From assembly GCA_951406725.2 (NCBI GenBank), contig OX597822.1, forward strand, positions 64,976,001 through 65,040,000: a DNA stretch of 64,000 nt. The letters run 5' to 3'. Position 1 is the stretch's first letter; every line of letters begins with the position of its first letter. The translations under genes and the position numbers were made by a program. Under the pieces are notes generated by a model. That model was not told the DNA's origin, searched no databases, and was given only the letters and a program-made list of their open reading frames with translations. This DNA is from Octopus vulgaris. Lineage: Eukaryota. Shown here in pieces: positions 3,196-63,899 of this stretch.

Positions 3196-3205
3196 GCAAT
3201 GCATG

Positions 3206-3625
3206 TTTCTTATTTCTTTATTGCATACAAGGGGCTAAACATAGGTAGGACAAACAAGGACAGACAAACAGATTAAATCAATTATATCGACCCCAGAGCG
3301 TAAGTGGTACTTATTTAACCGACCCCGAAAGGATGAAAGGCAAAGTCGACCTCGACGGAATTTGAACTGAGAACATAGCGGCAGACGAAATACCTATTTC
3401 CTTACTACCCACAATGGGCTAAACATAGAGAGGACGAACAAGGACAGACAAACAGATTAAGTCGATTATATCGAACCAGTGCGCAACTGGTACTTAATTT
3501 ATCGACCCCGAAAGGATGAAAGGCAAAGTCGACCTCGGCGGAATTTGAACTCAGAATGTAACGGTAGACGAAATACGGCTACGCACTTCGCCTGGCGTGC
3601 TAACGTTTCTGCCAGCTCGCCGCCT
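3206..3625 (-). mobile_element. tRNA-derived SINE family A (Meta-domain-like core), multimer
   Basis: Reverse complement of ggcggcgagctggcagaa...gttcaaattccgccgaggtcgactttgcctttcatcctttcggggtcgat; two tandem cores. Confidence 0.85.
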
Positions 3626-3639
3626 TATGAATATGTGTC

Positions 3640-3900
3640 GCTATAATCGACTTAATCCGTTTGTCTCTCCTTGTTTGTCCCCTCGGTGTTTAGCCCCCTG
3701 TGGGTAGTAAATAAATATATATTTCGCCTGCCGTTATGTTCTGATTTCAAATCCCGCCGATGTCGACTTTGCCTTTTATCCTTTTGGGGTCGATAAATTG
3801 AGTATCAGTTACGTACTGGGGCCGATGTAATCGACTTAATCCCATCGTCTGTCCTTGTTTGTCTCCTTTATGATTAGCCGCCTGTGGACAATAAAGAAAT
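3640..3900 (+). mobile_element. SINE family A, permuted copy
   Basis: Same core, opposite orientation to 3206-3625. Confidence 0.8.
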
Positions 3901-6031: not shown

Positions 6032-6255
6032 GGGCGGCGAGTTGGCAGAATCGTTAGCACGCCGAGCGAAATGCGTAGCCGTATTTCGTCTGCCGTTACA
6101 TTCTGAGTTCAAATTCCGCCGAGGTTGACTTTGCCTTTCATCCTTTCGGGGTCGATAAATTAAGTACCAGTTACGCACTGGGAGTCGATGTAATCGACTT
6201 AATCCGTTTGTCTGTCCTTGTTTGTCTCCTCTATCTTTGTGGATAGTTAAGAAAT
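6032..6255 (+). mobile_element. SINE family A, near-full monomer
   Basis: A box tggcagaatcgttag, B box gttcaaattcc, then the family core. Confidence 0.85.
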
Positions 6256-7737: not shown

Positions 7738-9575
7738 CTTGGCGAGCTGGCGGAAACGTTAGCACGCCGGGCGAAATGCTTAGCGGTATTTCGTCTGCCG
7801 TTACGTTCTGAGTTCAAATTCCGCCGAGGTCGACTTTGCCTTTCATCCTTTCGGGGTCGATTCAATAAGTACCAGTTATGCACTGGGGTCGATATAATCC
7901 GTTTGTCACCTCTATGCTTAGCCCCTTGTGGGCAGTAAGGAAATAAGAAACGTTAGCACGCCGGGCGAAATGCTTAGCGGTATTTCGTCTGCCGTTACGT
8001 TCTGAGTTCAAATTCCGCCGAGGTCGACTTTGCTTTTCATCCTTTCGGGGTCGATTCAATAAGTACCAGTTACGCACTGGTGTCGATGTAATCAACTTAA
8101 TCCGTTTGTCTGTCCTTGTTTGTCCTCTCTGTGTTTAGCCCCTTGTGAGTAGTAAAAAAATAGGTATTTTGTCTGTCTTTACGTTCTGAGTTCAAATTCC
8201 GCCGAGGTCGACTTTGCCTTTCATCCTTTCGGGGTCGATTAAAGAAGTACCAGTTGCGCACTGGGGTCAATATAATCGAATTAATCCGTTTGTCTGTCCG
8301 TGTTTGTCCTCTCTGTGTTTAGCCCATTGTGGGTAGTAAAGAAATAGGCATTTCGTCTGGCGTTACGTTCTGAGTTAAAATTCCGCCGAGGTGGACATTG
8401 CCTTTCATCCTTTCGGGGTCGATAAATTAAGTACCAGTTATGCACTGGGATCGATATAATCCGTTTGTCACCTCTATGCTTACCCCCTTGTGGGCAGTAA
8501 AGAAATAAGAATCGTTAGCCCGCCGGGCGAAATGCTTAGCGGTATTTCGTCTGCGTTAAGTTGTGAGTTCAAATTCCGCCGAGGTCGACTTTGCCTTTCA
8601 TCCTTTCGGGGTCGATAAATTAAGTACCAGTTACGCACTGGGGTCGATGTAATCGACTTAATACCTATGTCTGTCCTTGTTTGTCCTCTTTGTGTTTAGC
8701 CCCTTGTGGGTAATAAAGAAATAGGTATTTCGTCTGTCGTTACGTTCTGAGTTCAAATTCCGCCGAGGTCGACTTTACCTTTCATCCTTTCGGGGTCGAT
8801 TAAACAAGTACCAGTTACCCACTGTGGTCTATATAATCGACTTAATCCGTTTGTCTGTCCTTGTTCGGCTCCTCTGTGTTTAGCCCCTTGTGGGTAGTAA
8901 AGAAATAGGTATTTCGTCTGCCGTTACGTTCTGGGTTCAAATTCCGTCGAGGTCGACAGTGCCTTACATCCTTTCGGGTCGATTAAATAAGTATCAGTTA
9001 CGCTCTGGGGTCGATATAATCGACTTAAACCCTTTGTTTAACCCTTTGTGGGCAGTAAAGAAATAAGAAACGTTATCACGCCGGTCGAAATGCTTAGCGG
9101 TATTTCGTCTGTGGTCTATATAATCGACTTAATCCGTTTGTCTGTCCTTGTTCGGCTCCTCTGTGTTTAGCCCCTTGTGGGTAGTAAAGAAATAGGTATT
9201 TCGTCTGCCGTTACGTTCTGGGTTCAAATTCCGTCGAGGTCGACAGTGCCTTACATCCTTTCGGGTCGATTAAATAAGTATCAGTTACGCTCTGGGGTCG
9301 ATATAATCGACTTAAACCCTTTGTTTAACCCTTTGTGGGCAGTAAAGAAATAAGAAACGTTATCACGCAGGTCGAAATGCTTAGCGGTATTTCGTCTGCC
9401 GTTACGTTCTGAGTTCAAATTCCGCCGAGGTCGACATTGCCTTTCATCCTTTCGGGGTCGATTAAATAAGTATCAGTTACGCTCTGGGGTCGATATAATC
9501 GACTTAAACCCTTTGCCTGTCCTTGTTTGTCCCCTCTATGTTTATCCCCTTGTGGGCCATAAAGAAATGAGAAAT
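7738..9575 (+). mobile_element. Head-to-tail array of about 10 family A SINE units
   Basis: Core gttcaaattccgccgaggtcgac...tcctttcggggtcgat recurs about every 175-290 bp. Confidence 0.9.
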
Positions 9576-13619: not shown

Positions 13620-14245
13620 ATACACACACACGTACATACCCACATACATTTCTTCTTCCTCCTCCTCATCATCATTTTCCTATTTTTCTTCATGTCTTCT
13701 TCACAGATGTGTAATATTTCTTCTCTCAAGTTTTGTTCACAGGAATTAAATTGTAACTGTAGTGAGAATTCTATCGTCAACGGAATAGTCTATCATGTCG
13801 GCCATCAGAACTGGTAGACTCGTGCTTATTTATTTTATTGATCGCACGAAAACAAAGGGCGAAAACACAAAAAAAATATCAACCCGTGATAAGATATCGA
13901 TATCAGCTAAATCTTAAACAGAAATAAGCAAATACCTAACAGTATTTTGCTCCGACGCTCTCCCGAATCTGTTATCCACTATCTTTAATTTGGAGACCTG
14001 CAGAGAAATCGAACCTGTCCAGGCCTCTGAATGCCTATGACACGCAGTATGTCAAGTGTCTAGGATATAACATAGCTTTCACTACACAGTAGTATTGTTA
14101 TGGTAAACTCATCTCTTCCTTCCCGTTTCTTTTGTCGTATCACTTCCGACCATCGGCTGAGTCTAACTTCTATTTCATTTCCCCATCCACTACTATATTT
14201 CTTTCGGGCCTTCGTTACCGTTGAGGCTGCACGGCATCGCTCTCG

Positions 14246-15034
14246 CTTTCAGAGATCCCTGGCCTGGCAGTGCTAACGAGAAGCGCTACCCGTTCGGGAT
14301 TAGCTCTACAGGCATGGCTCGAGAAACCCAGGACCGACCTGCCCGAGATGCAGTGTCCAACCATTTCCGACCTGTGGGCCTATGTTGAACGACTGCTATC
14401 GCTTGTGGGACGAGTTAGTTTATCAGCCGAATCTATCGTGATTATTGTCTCGCCTCCTTCCTTGAAACGAGAAGGAAGGGCCATTTTCATCGCACTTGTG
14501 GCTATGGCGAAAGAATATGTATGGTGGACGCGTCTGAAAGGTCTAAAGAAAAACACTTTCCTCTCCGGTGAGTCTCTCATCAACTTCTTCAAGTATTACT
14601 TGAAGCGGAAGGTGAGAGTAGAGAGGGATTTTTTGTCTAATGAATGCTTCAATAAAAGATGGGTGAATGTAGCAAGGATGGCACGTATGAATGACGAAGC
14701 CACCTTGAGCATAATCGTACGAACCAAAAAAAGAAAAAAGGAAAAAAGAGAGTCACTTACTGTAATGCATTTTCTTTTGCATGACATTATTGCCCGAGGT
14801 TGCCGTGGTCTTTTCCCCTTGGCCTTCTTTCCTCAGATAAAACTAATCTGTTTCCTCTTTTTACACTATGACATTTCTGTGATACACGATCCATATTGAT
14901 CGGCCGTTTTTTTAACGATCCCTTTTCATCGAATTTCTACCTCCTTCTTTTTTTCCTTCTTCTCTTCCCAAAAAGAAAGGCTCTACTTTGTATTTTCCCC
15001 CTGTCTTCAGCCCTGTGTGGCCAATAAAGAAACA

Positions 15035-16530: not shown

Positions 16531-16729
16531 TGTATGTATGTATGTATTTATGTATTTATATATATATGTATGTATGCATTATATGTAGGCATATATACTT
16601 AAATACCTTGGAATATGAATATATTCTAAGGTATACATATATATAATATATGTGTATATATACATATATATATATATATACACACAAATATATAGATGTA
16701 TATTATTACTATTATTAAACAATAAATTT

Positions 16730-17530
16730 AATGTCTGGTCATAGAGTGACCAATGGTTTCGCATCCACGAAGGCTGTAACTTCGCAGACGACCCATCACA
16801 GGCTAGTTCGAAGACAAATTCAACTTTTCTCGTCTGGGAGGCACAAATCTGTTGCGGTCAATGGTCATTTGGTTAACAAAGGATAAATAGTTCTACGTCA
16901 GTGAGGACAGGTTATCTCCCCTACAACAGTCATTTTTGGGCCGAGAGACGGGGAATAAGGAATTTATCCCTTGGGCTGTTTTTGGATCATAAGGACCCTT
17001 CTGGGCTTAGTTAGCGAATGGGAAATCCCATGCAAGCAGCAGGTAGCGCTTGAAATGGATGTATGGTGCGAAGATTTCTTGGTGTGTATTCAGTAACCTT
17101 GGTTTCAGGGTGTCTCTGAGTATCCTAGTTCGCTCAGCTATGCAAGCTTGCAGCGTACGATCCCGTTGATGTCGGGTCCCGGCCGCTCCAAGATCTTCCA
17201 CTTAATATCGTACCGTGTCCCTTCGTCGTTGAAGCCCCACACATGGCTGGTCAGGGATGTGACGAATCGTCTTTCCTGGACCCTGAAGGGGGACCTGAGA
17301 TTGTACAGGCGTCGCTTGAAGGACTTTCCGTCCGACCCGAGATGTTTCCAGGCTTGGGTGTTGGTTGCATTCACATTCCTGGTGCATCTTCGGTTGGCTT
17401 CGAGCCTGGGGATATTGTTGTTGCTACCGGTGTTGTTGGGGCTGGCATCATTGTAGTTATCATGCACAGGTCCCGTGATGCCGGTGTGGCTGCTCTCACT
17501 CTGGTTGTCGTCGATGTGTACTTTAGAGTG
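16730..17530 (-). mobile_element. Penelope-like element 3' fragment with GIY-YIG endonuclease remnant
   Basis: KHLGSDGKSFKRRLYNLRSPF...TSLTSHVWGFNDEGTRYDIKWKILE...CKL / CIAERTRIL...LLNTHQEIFAP matches the PLE GIY-YIG C-terminus; frameshifted; degenerate hammerhead motif at about 16740-16790. Confidence 0.8.
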
Positions 17531-21439: not shown

Positions 21440-22024
21440 AAAATGTAAAAAAAGCAAGGCAAATGAAATGAAATCATGATACGTAGGTAATGGTTTTATT
21501 TTGCAAATTTTCATTTGCCTTGCTTATATTTTACATTTTTCTTGAGAACACACTCTTTGTGGTAAGGCGATTTGACGTCTATCTCTAGCGTATAGGAATC
21601 CACTTTCCTCTTATTAATTGTAATATAATTTTTAAATCTTCGGAATTTTTGGAACATGCTAGACCACTGGTTTAAATTGATGTTAAGTTGATAGATATCA
21701 ATTATCTACCCTCATTATTTAATTTAAAATTTATATATATATATATATTCTCTAGAGGAGAATTCAGCGAACACCAGAACCAAATTTGACGGGCAGACTA
21801 TATAAATTTTCATCTGTCCTGCCCGCCAAATTTGGTTCTGGTGTTCGCTGAATTTCTCCTCTAGATAATTTTCTTTGTAGCTTGATCGTTGATGATCTAT
21901 TTCTAGCATACGGCCGACTACCTAGCAGTCTTGCCCTGCCAATATACACATTTCTCAGATTTTTTGTATGCTAGACTACTGGTTTTAAATTGATATTAAA
22001 ATTAATATTAATTTATCTCCCTCA

Positions 22025-23830: not shown

Positions 23831-23870
<40 letters not shown>

Positions 23871-24014
23871 CATAAGGGACTAAAGCCATCTGAATATGGC
23901 TAGGGACAGGGCAGGGTGGTGGGGGTGTTACTGTTGCATTTAGCCCCAGGCGAACATCGACGTCACCAGAAAGGCTCGACACCGTCACGGTGCCCTTAAC
24001 CTGCAAAGGGAGGT

Positions 24015-24111
24015 AATTCCCCGATGAAGCGGAAACCACACACGGACCATGGTTTCAAGGTGTATTGCCTATCATCGGCGTGTGGTAGGCCTCCGCTTCC
24101 TCGACGAATTC
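24015..24111 (-). ncRNA. Second copy of the same hammerhead candidate
   Basis: Reverse complement of 24501-24598. Confidence 0.6.
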
Positions 24112-24500
24112 TCTCTCTGCAGGATTTTCTTATATAGATTTTCAAGCAAAATACATTTGCTGATTTCGAAAATCTGTTCGAAAGCAATAAAAATTCTCTA
24201 AAAGGGATATAGACAGTAACTGCTCGATAACATAAGGGACTAAAGCCATCTGAATATGGCTAGGGACAGGGCAGGGTGGTGGGGGTGTTACTGTTGCATT
24301 TAGCCCCAGGCGAACATCGACGTCACCAGAAAGGCTCGACACCGTCACGGTGCCCTTAACCTGCAAAGGGAGGTAATTCCCCGATGAAGCGGAAACCACA
24401 CACGGACCATGGTTTCAAGGTGTATTGCTTTCGAACAGATTTTCGAAATCAGCAAATGTATTTTGCTTGAAAATCTATATAAGAAAATCCTGCAGAGAGA

Positions 24501-24598
24501 GAATTCGTCGAGGAAGCGGAGGCCTACCACACGCCGATGATAGGCAATACACCTTGAAACCATGGTCCGTGTGTGGTTTCCGCTTCATCGGGGAATTA
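24501..24598 (+). ncRNA. Type I hammerhead ribozyme candidate (U4C core variant)
   Basis: cacacg CCGAUGA u-agg-caauaca-ccu-u GAAA ccaug GUC cgugug; palindromic ACCAUGGU stem III; extended stem I gaagcgga/uccgcuuc; predicted cleavage after 24567. Confidence 0.6.
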
Positions 24599-24777
24599 CC
24601 TCCCTTTGCAGGTTAAGGGCACCGTGACGGTGTCGAGCCTTTCTGGTGACGTCGATGTTCGCCTGGGGCTAAATGCAACAGTAACACCCCCACCACCCTG
24701 CCCTGTCCCTAGCCATATTCAGATGGCTTTAGTCCCTTATGTTATCGAGCAGTTACTGTCTATATCCCTTTTTATTG

Positions 24778-24811
<34 letters not shown>

Positions 24812-26988: not shown

Positions 26989-28402
26989 CGTGTGTGTGTG
27001 TGTATGTATATGTATGTTTGTTTGTATATACGGTGGATTTTTTTTCAAAAGCCAACATTGGATCTACGTACCATAATTCATATCTGACTCTTTAGATGTC
27101 GATACTATCTCAAACGCACCACATTAGCAGTTACTGTTCGTCAATGTTGTCGAAGCTGGTGCTGCCGGCAGGGTTGGTCTTGGTGTGTTATACTGTCGCG
27201 TATTGTTTTATTATAGTTGATTTGACTTCCTACAACAGTTGACGAAACATGTTCCAAGGAGAAGAGCAATATCTGTTTCTTTTGACTCGGTACACAATGT
27301 GAAAACTTACAATAAGATTAGTTGGTGTTAGGGCGCAGTAAAGTGTGAAGAACTAATGGAAAGTTGTGATGTTTACGCTTTAATAGCTACATCAACGATA
27401 AGATAAATGTGAATTGGGAAAAAAGAAATATTTACATGTAGGCTTGGCTGTGTGGTTAAGAATTTCGCTTGCAACCACACGGCTACAGGTTCAATTCCAG
27501 CGCGCGTCATCTTGACCAATGTCTTCTATTATAGCCCCGTGCCGACCGATGCATGTAAGTAGTAGTAGTAGTATTAATAGTAGTAGTAGTAGTAATAGTA
27601 GTGGTAGTGGTGATGGTGGTGGTAGTAATGGCAGTAGCAGTAGTAGTGGTGACGGTGGTAGTGGTGATGGTGGTGGCAGTCATAGTAGTTGTGGTAGTAC
27701 TTTGTTGTGATGTAGAACTGGGCTAGGGTTATAGAGCCGGCTTGTCATCAAAGGAACCCCAGCCATGTCTCTTTCTTTATACCGATATATTCTGCACTGC
27801 GTCCTCTATTGAAGGGCTTATATGTTATCTAATTCTTCGGGGAAGGGCATCTACTAGAGACACAAATTTCCTTATTTTGTGGTGAGCTAGAGATGTCAGA
27901 AGCAGATTCACTGATTCATTCATCACTGTTCCTGGGTACCGCAGTACATCCACCTGTAAACTAAGTGACGCTTATCACGGATTGATGTGTAAGAACACAG
28001 CCCGGTGGTTTGTCTAAGGTTCTACTCGCACTGCAAAAACGCGTCGCAGCACTCGCCCTAATGCTCAGTTTCCTAAAATGCCCTGACTATCGCTTGTATT
28101 TATTTACATGACAGAGCAGCAAAGATGCGTATTTATAATACGGATTTACTGACTCGTACTCACCAATGAACGACGTGGACGGGTGTATTCTCTACAAGAA
28201 ATGGTTGGGATGATCAAGAATATATGTGACATTGAAAGCTTCACTGGTTGGGGCTGTGAGTTTGGTGCCAATGAATTCTCCGTTCCTTTCAATTTACGAA
28301 GCGCTTGGAAATGATTCATTTAACACTGATTCATTTATTATCGTCTGTTTTCTTTAACTAATCTCCTGTAATAAAGAAGGATATATGTATATATATATAT
28401 AC

Positions 28403-28752
28403 TAATTAAGGACTGAACACGAAAAGTGGACGGTCAACATGCTAGATATAGACGTCAAATCGCCATTCTCCACAAAGATTATGTTCTCAAATCAAACTCA
28501 GCGCAAAACCAAAGCAATAAGCAATAAAAATATACGTATATTTTCACTTGTTTATTGCTTTGGTTTTGTGCTGAGTTTGATTTGAGAACATAATCTTTGT
28601 GGAGAATGGCGATTTGACGTCTATATCTAGCATGTTGACTGTCCACTTTTCGTGTTCAGTCCTTAATTGGTATATATAAATATTTTAATCTTCGGATTAT
28701 TTTTTAATATGCTAGACCACTGGTTTTAATTGATAAATATCAATTTCTACCC

Positions 28753-32411: not shown

Positions 32412-33640
32412 CGAGGGTCGGCAGAAAATTTCATAGCCTGACCAAAATACTCTCATGGAATATGACCAAATGAGGTTTTATTTTTATCATGGGTCCTTTT
32501 GCGGTCTGCACATTTCTTCCAGCGGTGTTTAAGTACCTGGATCCCATTGGTGAAGAACCTTTCATCCTGTTGGTCGAAAAAGCCATCAACAGCAGATATG
32601 ACTTCATCATCACTGCAATTTTGGTCCCTTGGCAAGTGTTTTTCAAGGTTGGGGAACAAATCAGTAGAATAGGGTTGTTGATCAACCTGTTCAAAGCCAC
32701 AATTACATTGGAACATTGTCCTGATGAAAGAAGGCCTCCTTTGTCAATTATCCTGGTCGTTTGGCCTTGGTAGCCTTTCGTAACTACCTGAGTAACTTGG
32801 CTTAGTACTTTCCATTGATAGTGTGGCCCTTTTGAAACAATCCATTAAACACAATGCCTTTTTTGCATCCCAGTAAACTGAGACCATCACTTTCCCTGTA
32901 GATTAAATGCCGTTGGCCTACTTTGGAGTAGGTGAGAATGGGTGTTTGCACTGTATTGATTGCCTCTTTGTCTCTGGTTCAATGAGATAAAGCTAACATT
33001 CACCCTGGCTTAGGAAACGTTCAAGGAAGCCAGCTGGATCTGCCTTAAACATCGTCAGATTTGCCCGTGATATGATAAGCCTGATGCTCTTTTGATCAGT
33101 TGTCAGAAGGCGTGGCACCCATCGTTATGCCAAGTTCGTTGTTCAGAATATTCTCAACTCTCTGGACATGATATGCTAAGAGCATTGACCATTTGTTTTA
33201 GAGTCAGTCACCTGTCATCCATCACTATGTGGTGAACACGATCAATGTTTTCCACAGTGGTGGCTGTTGCAGGACATCTAGAACTCGGAGTCGTCTTCAA
33301 GTTTCTCCCTTCTCTTTCTGAATTCAACTGCCCACGTTTGCACTGGTGATAAAACCAAAGCGTCATCCCCTAATGTAACAACCACGTCAGCATGAATTTC
33401 CTTGGAGTCTAAACCCTTTTTCTGCAGGTACTTGGTAATCCCATGGCACCAAATTACGCTCAATTTCAAGAGAAGTCACTGCTAGTTACTTCTGAAATCT
33501 TTGAACTGTCAGATGTCAGTTAGTCTGGCAGAAAATAATGCAGTTAATAATAATACGGGTTGAAATTAATGTATGCAAAGTTTCACAGCTTTAGCATTAA
33601 TCTTTCATAGTCAGCCTATCAACATTTCAGCCCACCCTCA
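32412..33640 (-). mobile_element. Decayed full-length mariner transposon (about 1.23 kb)
   Basis: TIRs cgagggtcggcagaaaatttcatagcctgac / gtcagcctatcaacatttcagcccaccctca; left TA; HTH remnant ITKYLQKKGLDSKEIHADV...VQTWAVEFRK and C-terminal PYSTD...LFPNLEKHL...GIQVLKHRWKKC; many stops. Confidence 0.9.
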
Positions 33641-41528: not shown

Positions 41529-42198
41529 TTCACTTTGAAGGATGTTCGTTTTCAATCCAGGAACAGGAAATAGCAACCAATTACCTGGTGCAGAAAAGGG
41601 ACAGAGACCCAGGAAAAGCAGTAAAATGTTATAACCGATGCAGACTTTGTGGAGTTAATACCGAAGATATCACCCACATCAAAAACAGTTGTCCGAAAAT
41701 ATCATCACGGTAGAATCTCTCGGTGAGACATAATGATATTGCTAGGACACTAAATAATAAAATCCGTCGGAAGGATAACCCCCGAGGACAAAGAAATGAG
41801 AACTCATAAGCCATAGACACTCATAATAAAAAGGAGTACTGATGGAATGTCCCAGTGAAGATCTCAATAAAATGTAAGCACAACAGACCTGATATAAATG
41901 TTTGGGATAGAGAAAAGAAACTGTGCACAGTTGTGGAAATTAGCTGGCTAGCGGATGTTAACATCAAACTGAAGATCAGTGAAAAAGAGAACACCTACTC
42001 TGAACTATCGAGAAATCTGCAGTTACTCCAGATTACAAGTTCAGGTTTATACCAGTAATTATTGCGGCTCTGGTATATGTAATACACAGCCTAAATATCA
42101 ATCTTGAAAAATTAGGCTTCTCAAAACCAGACTACAGATTCAATTCATCGCCGGAACTGTAAAAATCTGTAAAACTTCCCAGAAGTTTATCATCTAAG
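41529..42198 (+). mobile_element. RLE-type non-LTR retrotransposon remnant (R4/Dong-like)
   Basis: SIQEQEIATNYL...CRLCGVNTEDITHIKNSC (CCHC knuckle)...RHNDIA...HNRPDI..WDREKKLCTVVEIS (PD-(D/E)xK-type endonuclease); stops and frameshifts. Confidence 0.8.
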
Positions 42199-53864: not shown

Positions 53865-54430
53865 GAGACCCCCTTCGGTCATGACTGACCATGGGATTGC
53901 ACCTAGGAGGTTACCCTCCCATGCACAAGTCCGGGCAAGGTTGTTTATGGAAGACCAGCAGTCGCCCATGCATACCTATTTCTTTACTACCCACAAGGGG
54001 CTAAACACAGAGAGGACAAACAAGGACAAACTGATTAAGTCGATTGTATCGACCCCAGTGCGTAACTGGTACCTATTTAATCGACCCCGAAAGGATGAAA
54101 GGCAAAGTCGACTTCGGCGGAATTTGAACTCAGAACATAGCGGCAGACGAAATACTGTTAAGCATTTCGACCGGCGTGCTAACGCCTCCCCTCTTACGAT
54201 GCATACCGGCCTCTCCTCTCCACGCCACCAGTGTTATTCAAGGGAAAGGCAAAGGCCAATACAGCTTGGCATCTGTGACGTAGTAACTCATTTCTACAGC
54301 TGAGTGAACTGGAGCAATGTGAAATAAAGTGTCTTGCGCAAGAACACAACACGCAGCCTGGTCCGGGATTCGAACTTACAACCTCATGATCGGAAGCTCG
54401 ACGCTCTAACCACTGAGCCATGCGCCTTCA
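53865..54430 (-). mobile_element. Family D SINE with RTE-like tail, interrupted by a family A SINE (53977-54198)
   Basis: 9-bp target site duplication atgcatacc at 53968-53976 and 54199-54207. Confidence 0.85.
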
Positions 54431-62949: not shown

Positions 62950-63722
62950 TCTCTACTCTAGGCACAGTGCCCGGAAATTGGGGGAGGGGGACAGTTGTTT
63001 AGATCGACTCCAGTACGCAACTGGTACTTAATTTATCGACCCTGAAAGGATGAAAGGCAAAGTCGACCTCGGCGGAATTTGTACTCACTACGTAAAGACA
63101 GACGAAATGCCGCTAAGTATTTCGCCCGGCGCGTAAACTTTCGTTATTTCTTTATTGCCCACAAGGGGCTAAATATAGAGGGGACAAACAAGGACAGACA
63201 AACGGATTAAGTTGATTACATCAACCCTAGTGCGTAACTGAAAGGATGAAAAGCAAAGTCGTCCTCGGCGGAATTTGAACTCAGAACGTAGCGGCAGACG
63301 AAATACCTATTTCTTTACCACCCACAAGGGGCTAAACACAGAGTGGACAAACAAGGACAGACAAAGGGATTAAGTTGATTATATCGACCCCAGTACGTAA
63401 CTGGTACTTATCTAATCGAACCCGAAAGGAAGAAAGGCAAAGTCGACCTCGGCGGAATTTGAACTCAGAACATAGAGGCAGACGAAATACCTATTTCTTT
63501 ATTACCCACAAGGGGCTAAACACAGAGGGGACAAACAAGGACAGACATAGGTATTAAGTCGATTACATCGACCCCAGTGCGTAACTGGTACTTAATTTAT
63601 CGACCCCGAAAGGATGAAAGGCAAAGTCGACCTCGGCAGAATTTGAACACGGAACGTAAAGACAGACGAAATATCGCTAAGCATTTCGCCCGATGTGCTA
63701 ACGTTTCTGCCAGCTCGCCACC
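62950..63722 (-). mobile_element. Head-to-tail array of about 4 family A SINE units
   Basis: aaaggcaaagtcgacctcggcggaatttg-like core at about 63055, 63250, 63435 and 63620. Confidence 0.9.
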
Positions 63723-63899
63723 TTTGATTCAGAACAATCTTCCGATTGGAGGTCTCACAAACCACGTTTTGCATTCAACAATCGAAGGATGACGATGGAG
63801 ATGACGTGATATTGTCCCTACGATGGTGATTGTCATATGGTTTTTACTTGCGTATCAAAGCCACGCTACAATTAGACGCTGATTCTTTTTTTATTTCAG

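Follow-up and report, generated by a model that had tools for sequence, protein, structure and literature searches.

At positions 23867 to 24779 of a 64,000-nucleotide stretch of Octopus vulgaris DNA (contig OX597822.1; hereafter the window), a compact repeat element lies between two (TA)n tracts, and no second locus of its unit occurs in the window. The tandem part of the element, 23867–24428, is 562 nt long and holds 1.56 copies of a 360-nt unit, with 24227–24428 repeating 23867–24068 (202 nt, 100% identity, spacing 360). It is joined to an inverted right arm, of which the 350 nt at 24423–24772 are 100% identical to a circular permutation of the same unit; beyond 24772 there is a 10-nt deletion, followed by 7 more unit letters that end at 24779. 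The features, with monomer positions counted from the cut site of the ribozyme motif, are as follows.

23834–23869, no strand: left (TA)n target tract, sharing 3 letters with the start of the left arm
23867–24226, minus strand (ribozyme sense): left arm, full 360-nt unit; its 3' end is monomer position 178
23870–23976, minus strand: 3'-terminal unit segment common to diverged sister repeats in public sequencing runs
24026–24099, minus strand: complete type I hammerhead motif with extended stem I; core start 24078, predicted cut after 24045; mirrors the plus-strand copy
24227–24428, minus strand: left arm, partial second unit, 202 nt, 100% identical, 5'-truncated within hammerhead loop 2
24386–24428, minus strand: hammerhead 3' half only (GAAA, stem III, cut site after 24405, 3' strand of stem I); core box 1 absent
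24423–24428, no strand: 6-nt microhomology where the two arms meet head to head
24423–24779, plus strand: right (inverted) arm, almost exactly one turn, from monomer 216 round to 222, without 206–215 at the 3' end
24513–24586, plus strand: complete type I hammerhead motif; core CCGAUGA 24534–24540, GAAA 24556–24559, predicted cut after 24567
24574–24591, plus strand: 7-nt stretches perfectly complementary to the two core boxes, just past the cut site, present in other copies too
24746–24779, plus strand: 34-nt 'tail' on one side only, equal to 44 nt of the unit if the 10-nt deletion is counted in
24779–24808, no strand: right (TA)n target tract

Read in the ribozyme sense, the two arms stand head to head and both 3' ends point outward into TA, the left arm running from monomer position 337 through a full turn to 178. 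They overlap by 6 nt at their joint, across which the predicted cDNA 3' ends are complementary, and the chance of an overlap of at least 6 nt, over all 129,600 pairs of ends, is 0.00054. The cut site coincides with none of the four arm ends and is crossed three times by the arms together. The element is flanked by (TA)n on both sides while such tracts make up 4.6% of the window, and any target duplication is unreadable within them. Comparison of arm with arm gives 0 differences over 552 positions (divergence below 0.54% at 95%); the insertion is recent, a date that applies to the insertion and not to the family, and gene conversion could have lowered the divergence further. A preliminary description of this DNA had reported about 1.55 tandem units and an apparently identical inverted copy in (TA)n, which is borne out at 1.56 units with two (TA)n flanks, except that the inverted copy, present and identical as stated, is not colinear with the unit and carries the 10-nt deletion.

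Each full unit was also said to carry a type I hammerhead with a palindromic stem III and a CCGAUGA core, and this we recover in both arms. The type I descriptor matches at 24534 on the plus strand and at 24078 on the minus strand, both with a 6-bp stem I, the CCGAUGA core and the palindromic ACCAUGGU stem III; it matches none of 3000 dinucleotide shuffles of the unit on either strand, and three further descriptor rows in the window have a stem I of just 4 bp. The motif is built from a 12-bp outer stem I, a 3x1 internal loop and a 6-bp inner stem I; stem II has 3 bp above a U.U pair, and stem III has 2 bp and a palindromic loop. This is not the geometry of the minimal hammerheads of metazoan Penelope-like elements (PLEs), described in PMC4209133 as having a 7–8-bp helix II, a 4–5-bp helix I and G10.1-C11.1: the 6-bp stem I, the 3-bp stem II over U.U and the 2-bp stem III correspond to the canonical metazoan hammerhead of that paper and not to its minimal pseudo-LTR type. 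Judged by its sequence, then, the octopus hammerhead is canonical-like, not minimal. Rfam returned no hammerhead match at the gathering threshold over the window, and the 16 matches at E<=10 around the element include 0 ribozymes.

The second tandem copy carries the hammerhead 3' half only, lacking core box 1, so that a minus-strand transcript would hold two cut sites 360 nt apart and one core. The ribozyme motif occurs in one polarity of the unit; the earlier statement that both strands carry a ribozyme is right for the locus, where one arm is inverted, and not for the unit itself. An ambisense viroid-like RNA was considered and rejected, the descriptor matching one unit polarity only and the antisense core-like words being without stem I and stem II.

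Predicted folding sets the unit apart as a strongly structured RNA, with a z score of -6.05 for the inverted arm as a linear molecule and of -5.24 for the unit as a circle, 67% of which is paired. Stem III is predicted to be far more stable as a duplex than as a hairpin (-11.2 vs +2.9 kcal/mol), and the active monomer fold lies a predicted 7.4 kcal/mol above the minimum; taken together, these energies suggest that cutting would be dimer-favoured, in agreement with the preliminary reading of the palindromic stem. The CCGAUGA core corresponds to a U4C change, which lowers hammerhead activity considerably in vitro, as reported in PMC3088659. In addition, the 25 nt that follow the cut site contain complements of both core boxes, an arrangement held by 2 of 200,000 random 30-mers (a post hoc test), and C4 is predicted to pair more strongly with its complement than U4 would (-9.1 vs -6.9 kcal/mol). 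A 'blocked' fold acting as an equilibrium latch was rejected because it lies 21 kcal/mol above the minimum with a pair probability of 0.0, the complements being predicted to be out-competed by stem I at equilibrium. They could instead act as a co-transcriptional trap or be a relic of fold-back copying. On balance, we consider cleavage by the ribozyme in vivo slightly more likely than not.

The unit encodes no reverse transcriptase (RT), as the preliminary description had noted: there are stops in all six frames, and the circular unit offers at most 90 codons in a row without one. When eight Penelope-type proteins (8 of the 150 listed homologues of the remnant described below, two long proteins among them) were searched against the 64-kb window, only that remnant, at 17108–17374, was matched. 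A tRNA-derived SINE was likewise looked for by its tRNA-like head and dismissed, ARAGORN finding 0 genes in the window, a search by which decayed heads may be missed.

The remnant in question, within 16720–17440 on the minus strand (protein match 17108–17374, also minus), is that of a Penelope-type C-terminal GIY-YIG endonuclease; its best homologue has an E value of 1.2e-15, and it holds no RT part. Its long homologues resemble, by their motifs, the RT-GIY-YIG ORFs of PLEs. Some members of the Atlas neighbours of these long homologues carry GIY-YIG, RVT_1 and HTH_animal, and Pfam named no such domain in the 10 homologues tested. Judging from this remnant, Penelope-type elements have been in this genome. 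The remnant is not linked to the 360-nt unit, with which it shares only a 29-nt alignment that lies inside the remnant coding region and was therefore set aside, and a word-index search with the endonuclease remnant found nothing. A decayed hammerhead-like 3' half follows the remnant near 16760, and two positions, 60310 (plus) and 17939 (minus), show decayed motifs resembling minimal hammerheads, with a palindromic ACGT stem III, of the kind described in PLE ends.

Several other repeats share the window. A family of 183–184 nt forms partial tandems at 3205–3885, 6033–6200, 7740–9574, 53972–54184 and 62993–63724, with an inverted part (3211–3297 vs 3637–3717) and no hammerhead by our descriptors; within its arrays, 8822–9398 contains a 287-nt duplication at 99.7% identity that is much younger than the other units. 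A 9-nt motif common to this family and the 360-nt unit was set aside as being at about chance level for units of such sizes. At 28389–28683 an inverted repeat with 136-nt arms, 96% complementary around a 23-nt spacer, adjoins TA-rich sequence and has related pieces near 21553–21681. LINE-like 3' remnants, one with a homologue bearing zf-RVT, and weak mariner-type transposase matches below the cut-off lie at 14225–14710 (plus), 41543–41710 (plus) and 32747–33475 (minus); a search with the LINE fragment gave 2 hits and no lineage. No host exon passed the curated Pfam cut-off in the 295 of 376 segments scanned (low-complexity-masked, at least 40 codons), a scan that would miss short exons, so that an intronic position, and with it the proposed cleavage of a host pre-mRNA, is unsupported.

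The unit is not confined to this assembly. Half or more of its words are present in 20 of the 24 public runs listed, which come from 8 studies and carry four organism codes; codes B–D are not counted as a wide host range, since the samples may be mixed. None of the unit-holding runs listed is on record as RNA, and runs guessed to be RNA are no evidence of transcription. Four runs were compared to the unit through their contigs, which cannot distinguish a circle from a tandem. The head-to-tail joint, where 24226 is followed by 23867, was present in all four; in run X11 one contig of 390 nt (360 + 30) contains the whole unit and leaves no loose end, forming a closed 360-nt cycle, and in runs X3 and X10 the unit appears as one 359-nt contig spanning the joint. 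The closed cycle implies tandem or circular units without an intervening ORF and, together with the joint in every run compared, indicates that the unit is more than the terminal part of an element with an ORF. A rarer autonomous partner is still compatible with these data, given that contigs drop rare branches and that 16 of 80 loose ends were viewed.

These runs also separate the age of the insertion from that of the family. From 23998 to 24113 no variant reaches 5% in any of the four, so that the hammerhead, including C4 of its CCGAUGA core, is characteristic of the family. At 23997 and 24114 the window copy departs from three of the four runs, and at 24191 from all four, and the last of these argues that it is not a polished consensus; at 23997 and 24114 every arm covering the position has the same letter, which is what a single template would produce. 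In all three cases the copy and the majority of the runs differ by an A/T swap, and an A-to-G editing signature was not seen. In run X1, 1383 contig pieces fall on the unit, 624 at 99% identity or above, 476 at 95–99%, 253 at 90–95% and 30 below. Such variant pieces and the 20 runs containing the unit fit a variable multi-copy family, for which depth gives no copy number. The label 'very young' therefore suits the insertion and not the family as a whole, with 624 of 1383 pieces in X1 at least 99% alike. Diverged sister repeats share 23870–23976 of the unit. One record in X3 (number 19) is a 314-nt sister contig that shares both unit ends and the head-to-tail joint and differs in the ribozyme region.

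Animal retrozymes, their circles and their proposed mobilisation by PLEs have already been published (PMC7761336, PMC7229834, PMC4209133; Li et al., bioRxiv 10.64898/2026.07.22.740005), and those tested in PMC7229834 accumulate as circles. The octopus unit shares with the metazoan non-LTR retrozymes described there (coral, mussel and axolotl in PMC7229834, and those of Li et al.) a non-coding tandem unit of a few hundred nucleotides, its 360 nt lying within both the 150–450 bp by which retrozymes are recognised and the 350–390 bp given for mussel retrozymes in PMC7229834. Also shared are one type I hammerhead per unit, a short palindromic stem III, a monomer RNA predicted to be highly self-paired and a GC content below 50%; with axolotl HHR_Amex2, as drawn in PMC7229834, it has in common the 2-bp stem III and the U.U at the base of stem II. 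It differs from the retrozymes described in these sources in its family-wide U4C core, in a stem I extended by at least 12 bp, in the complements of both core boxes just past the cut, and in a locus of 1.56 units plus an inverted arm. The same core change is found in a viroid hammerhead variant cited in PMC3088659, whereas in the octopus it is the majority state of an animal genomic repeat family. Li et al. reserve the term 'active retrozyme' for copies with two consecutive units bearing complete hammerheads, and the present locus, having no such pair, fails this rule as a source copy, which is not a statement about its family; the same preprint reports no in vitro cleavage for 8 of 9 predicted Xenopus retrozyme dimers. 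For the giant squid genome, 235 hammerhead 1 matches are counted (PMC6962438). Our literature search, which covered the main text of mainly open-access papers, found no publication on cephalopod retrozymes and, within the same limits, none proposing a two-ended insertion model for retrozymes. We conclude that the element is real and best read as a non-LTR retrozyme, of the kind known in other animals, whose core is a variant and whose insertion layout is informative.

That layout is the point at which the octopus element meets the PLEs. Their insertions are described as partial tandems with an adjacent inverted, 5'-truncated copy, a 30–40-bp tail at one end and a bias for (TA)n (PMC8557442), and as having head-to-head arms, microhomology joints and deletions (PMC3846280). 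The octopus locus shows the same partial tandem, the same head-to-head, inverted and 5'-truncated arm, a microhomology joint with a deletion, a one-sided tail (34 nt in the locus and 44 nt on the unit, at this one locus) and a TA target; as in PLE pseudo-LTRs, the repeat carries a hammerhead. It differs from PLEs in lacking an RT-GIY-YIG ORF in the repeat unit and in its canonical-like rather than minimal hammerhead. A PLE protein has been reported to cut and extend both strands of AT-rich DNA and to initiate at two sites inside the RNA, which delimit the tail (PMC11167929); the putative octopus start sites differ in lying 178 and 222 nt past the cut site, outside the unit's AC-rich stretch. 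The Chlamys/MRC1-type derivatives of PMC8557442, mobilised in trans, offer a close parallel in being ORF-less and head-to-tail with pseudo-LTR anatomy. They differ in that they are described there as mostly without canonical hammerheads and as resembling an identified autonomous family at the 3' end, whereas none has been identified as the autonomous partner of the octopus unit. On this anatomy, we hold it highly probable that the 360-nt unit was mobilised by a Penelope-type machinery, and we consider it somewhat more probable still that the element is a non-autonomous hammerhead repeat. The earlier proposal of a recently inserted repeat of this sort with Penelope-type anatomy accordingly stands, on the identity of the arms, the layout, the TA target and the tail.

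The reading that we favour, and regard as probable, is a recent insertion of a non-LTR retrozyme by a Penelope-type enzyme acting in trans on both cut strands, likely from a circle. A tandem copy elsewhere would have been transcribed, its hammerheads cutting as dimers, probably slowly or with the help of protein, and a host ligase would have closed the monomer. The GIY-YIG endonuclease of a PLE would then have cut both (TA)n strands, and each cut 3' end could have primed cDNA at monomer position 178 or 222, the 44 nt between these sites giving rise to the tail. The resulting cDNAs, of 562 and 357 nt, would have passed the cut site three times without ever ending there, and their 3' ends would have annealed over 6 nt, to be followed by fill-in.

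As to the template, the absence of all four arm ends from the cut site and its three crossings point to a circle or an uncleaved multimer rather than a simple cut monomer. A circle is favoured by the circles of the tested retrozymes, by the minority letters common to the arms and by the right arm, which comes within about 10 nt of one full turn (a rough 5% coincidence, at one locus). A linear multimer is favoured by the one reconstituted PLE, for which PMC11167929 reports unprocessed RNA as the main substrate and a ribozyme cleavage that is protein-assisted and dispensable. Weighing these analogies, we place the circle as template at even chances. The corresponding alternative, in which the same element and a Penelope-type enzyme used an uncleaved linear multimer, the hammerhead being weak, protein-dependent or a passenger and no circle being needed, is in our view a strong rival, although less likely than the circle. 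It would sit well with the U4C variant, the weak monomer fold and the inactive Xenopus dimers of Li et al., and both arms would fit within about 2.9 units of a linear template; it fits less well with the accumulation of circles in PMC7229834, with a hammerhead region free of 5% variants in all four runs and with a right arm of almost exactly one turn, and a linear-only route would not easily rebuild tandems.

The remaining explanations depart further from the evidence. That the unit is the pseudo-LTR of an autonomous PLE, and the locus a severely 5'-truncated copy, we think very unlikely, even though all the insertion hallmarks are those of autonomous PLEs (PMC8557442, PMC3846280). Contigs drop rare branches, only 16 of 80 loose ends were viewed, at 30 letters each, and records running into unlike sequence make up 0.3 of those compared in X10 and 0.05 in X3, all of which leaves room for such an element. 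The closed cycle in X11 and the joint in every run nevertheless speak for a repeat unit without an ORF; the long loose ends among those viewed lie at the segment shared with the sister repeats or look like diverged unit, and the hammerhead is without the minimal traits given for metazoan PLEs in PMC4209133. A satellite-like repeat spread at the DNA level, by unequal crossover or fork template switching, its inversion arising by microhomology-mediated repair, would have to explain a single short dispersed insertion in (TA)n with 3' ends outward and a one-sided tail, as well as the strong RNA fold and the ribozyme motif. Tandem units and microhomology joints can form by DNA-level processes. Satellite-style local amplification is discussed by Li et al. 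(bioRxiv 10.64898/2026.07.22.740005), and we judge this origin highly improbable here. Least credible is that assembly or library preparation joined pieces of a multicopy repeat into a chimera with this tandem-plus-inverted layout: the arms are perfectly identical and such structures trouble assemblies (PMC8557442), but the inverted stretch does not reach beyond the element, the flanks are unlike each other, a tail and a deletion mark the right arm, and the copy, differing from all four runs at 24191, is no polished consensus.

Returning to the favoured retrozyme insertion by a Penelope-type enzyme, a bolder form of it can be put forward, which we consider unlikely as it stands. Both arms would derive from one circular 360-nt RNA, copied by a Penelope-type RT dimer with both TA strands primed and the right arm halted after one turn at its own start, while a ribozyme damped by U4C and the core complements, and triggered only by dimerisation or by the Penelope protein, would spare the circles. 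If true, the locus would show directly, at the level of the genome, that a circle can template retrotransposition, and it would offer a substrate ready for reconstituting the process.

Mollusc retrozymes and their link to PLEs are already in print, a link drawn from co-occurrence and from kinship of sequence. A young retrozyme copy that bears the whole set of Penelope insertion marks adds anatomical support for the PLE route, a finding useful to the specialist rather than surprising. With a template of only 360 nt and two readable start sites, it makes testable how the tandem-plus-inverted insertions of Penelope elements form, and whether their template is circular.
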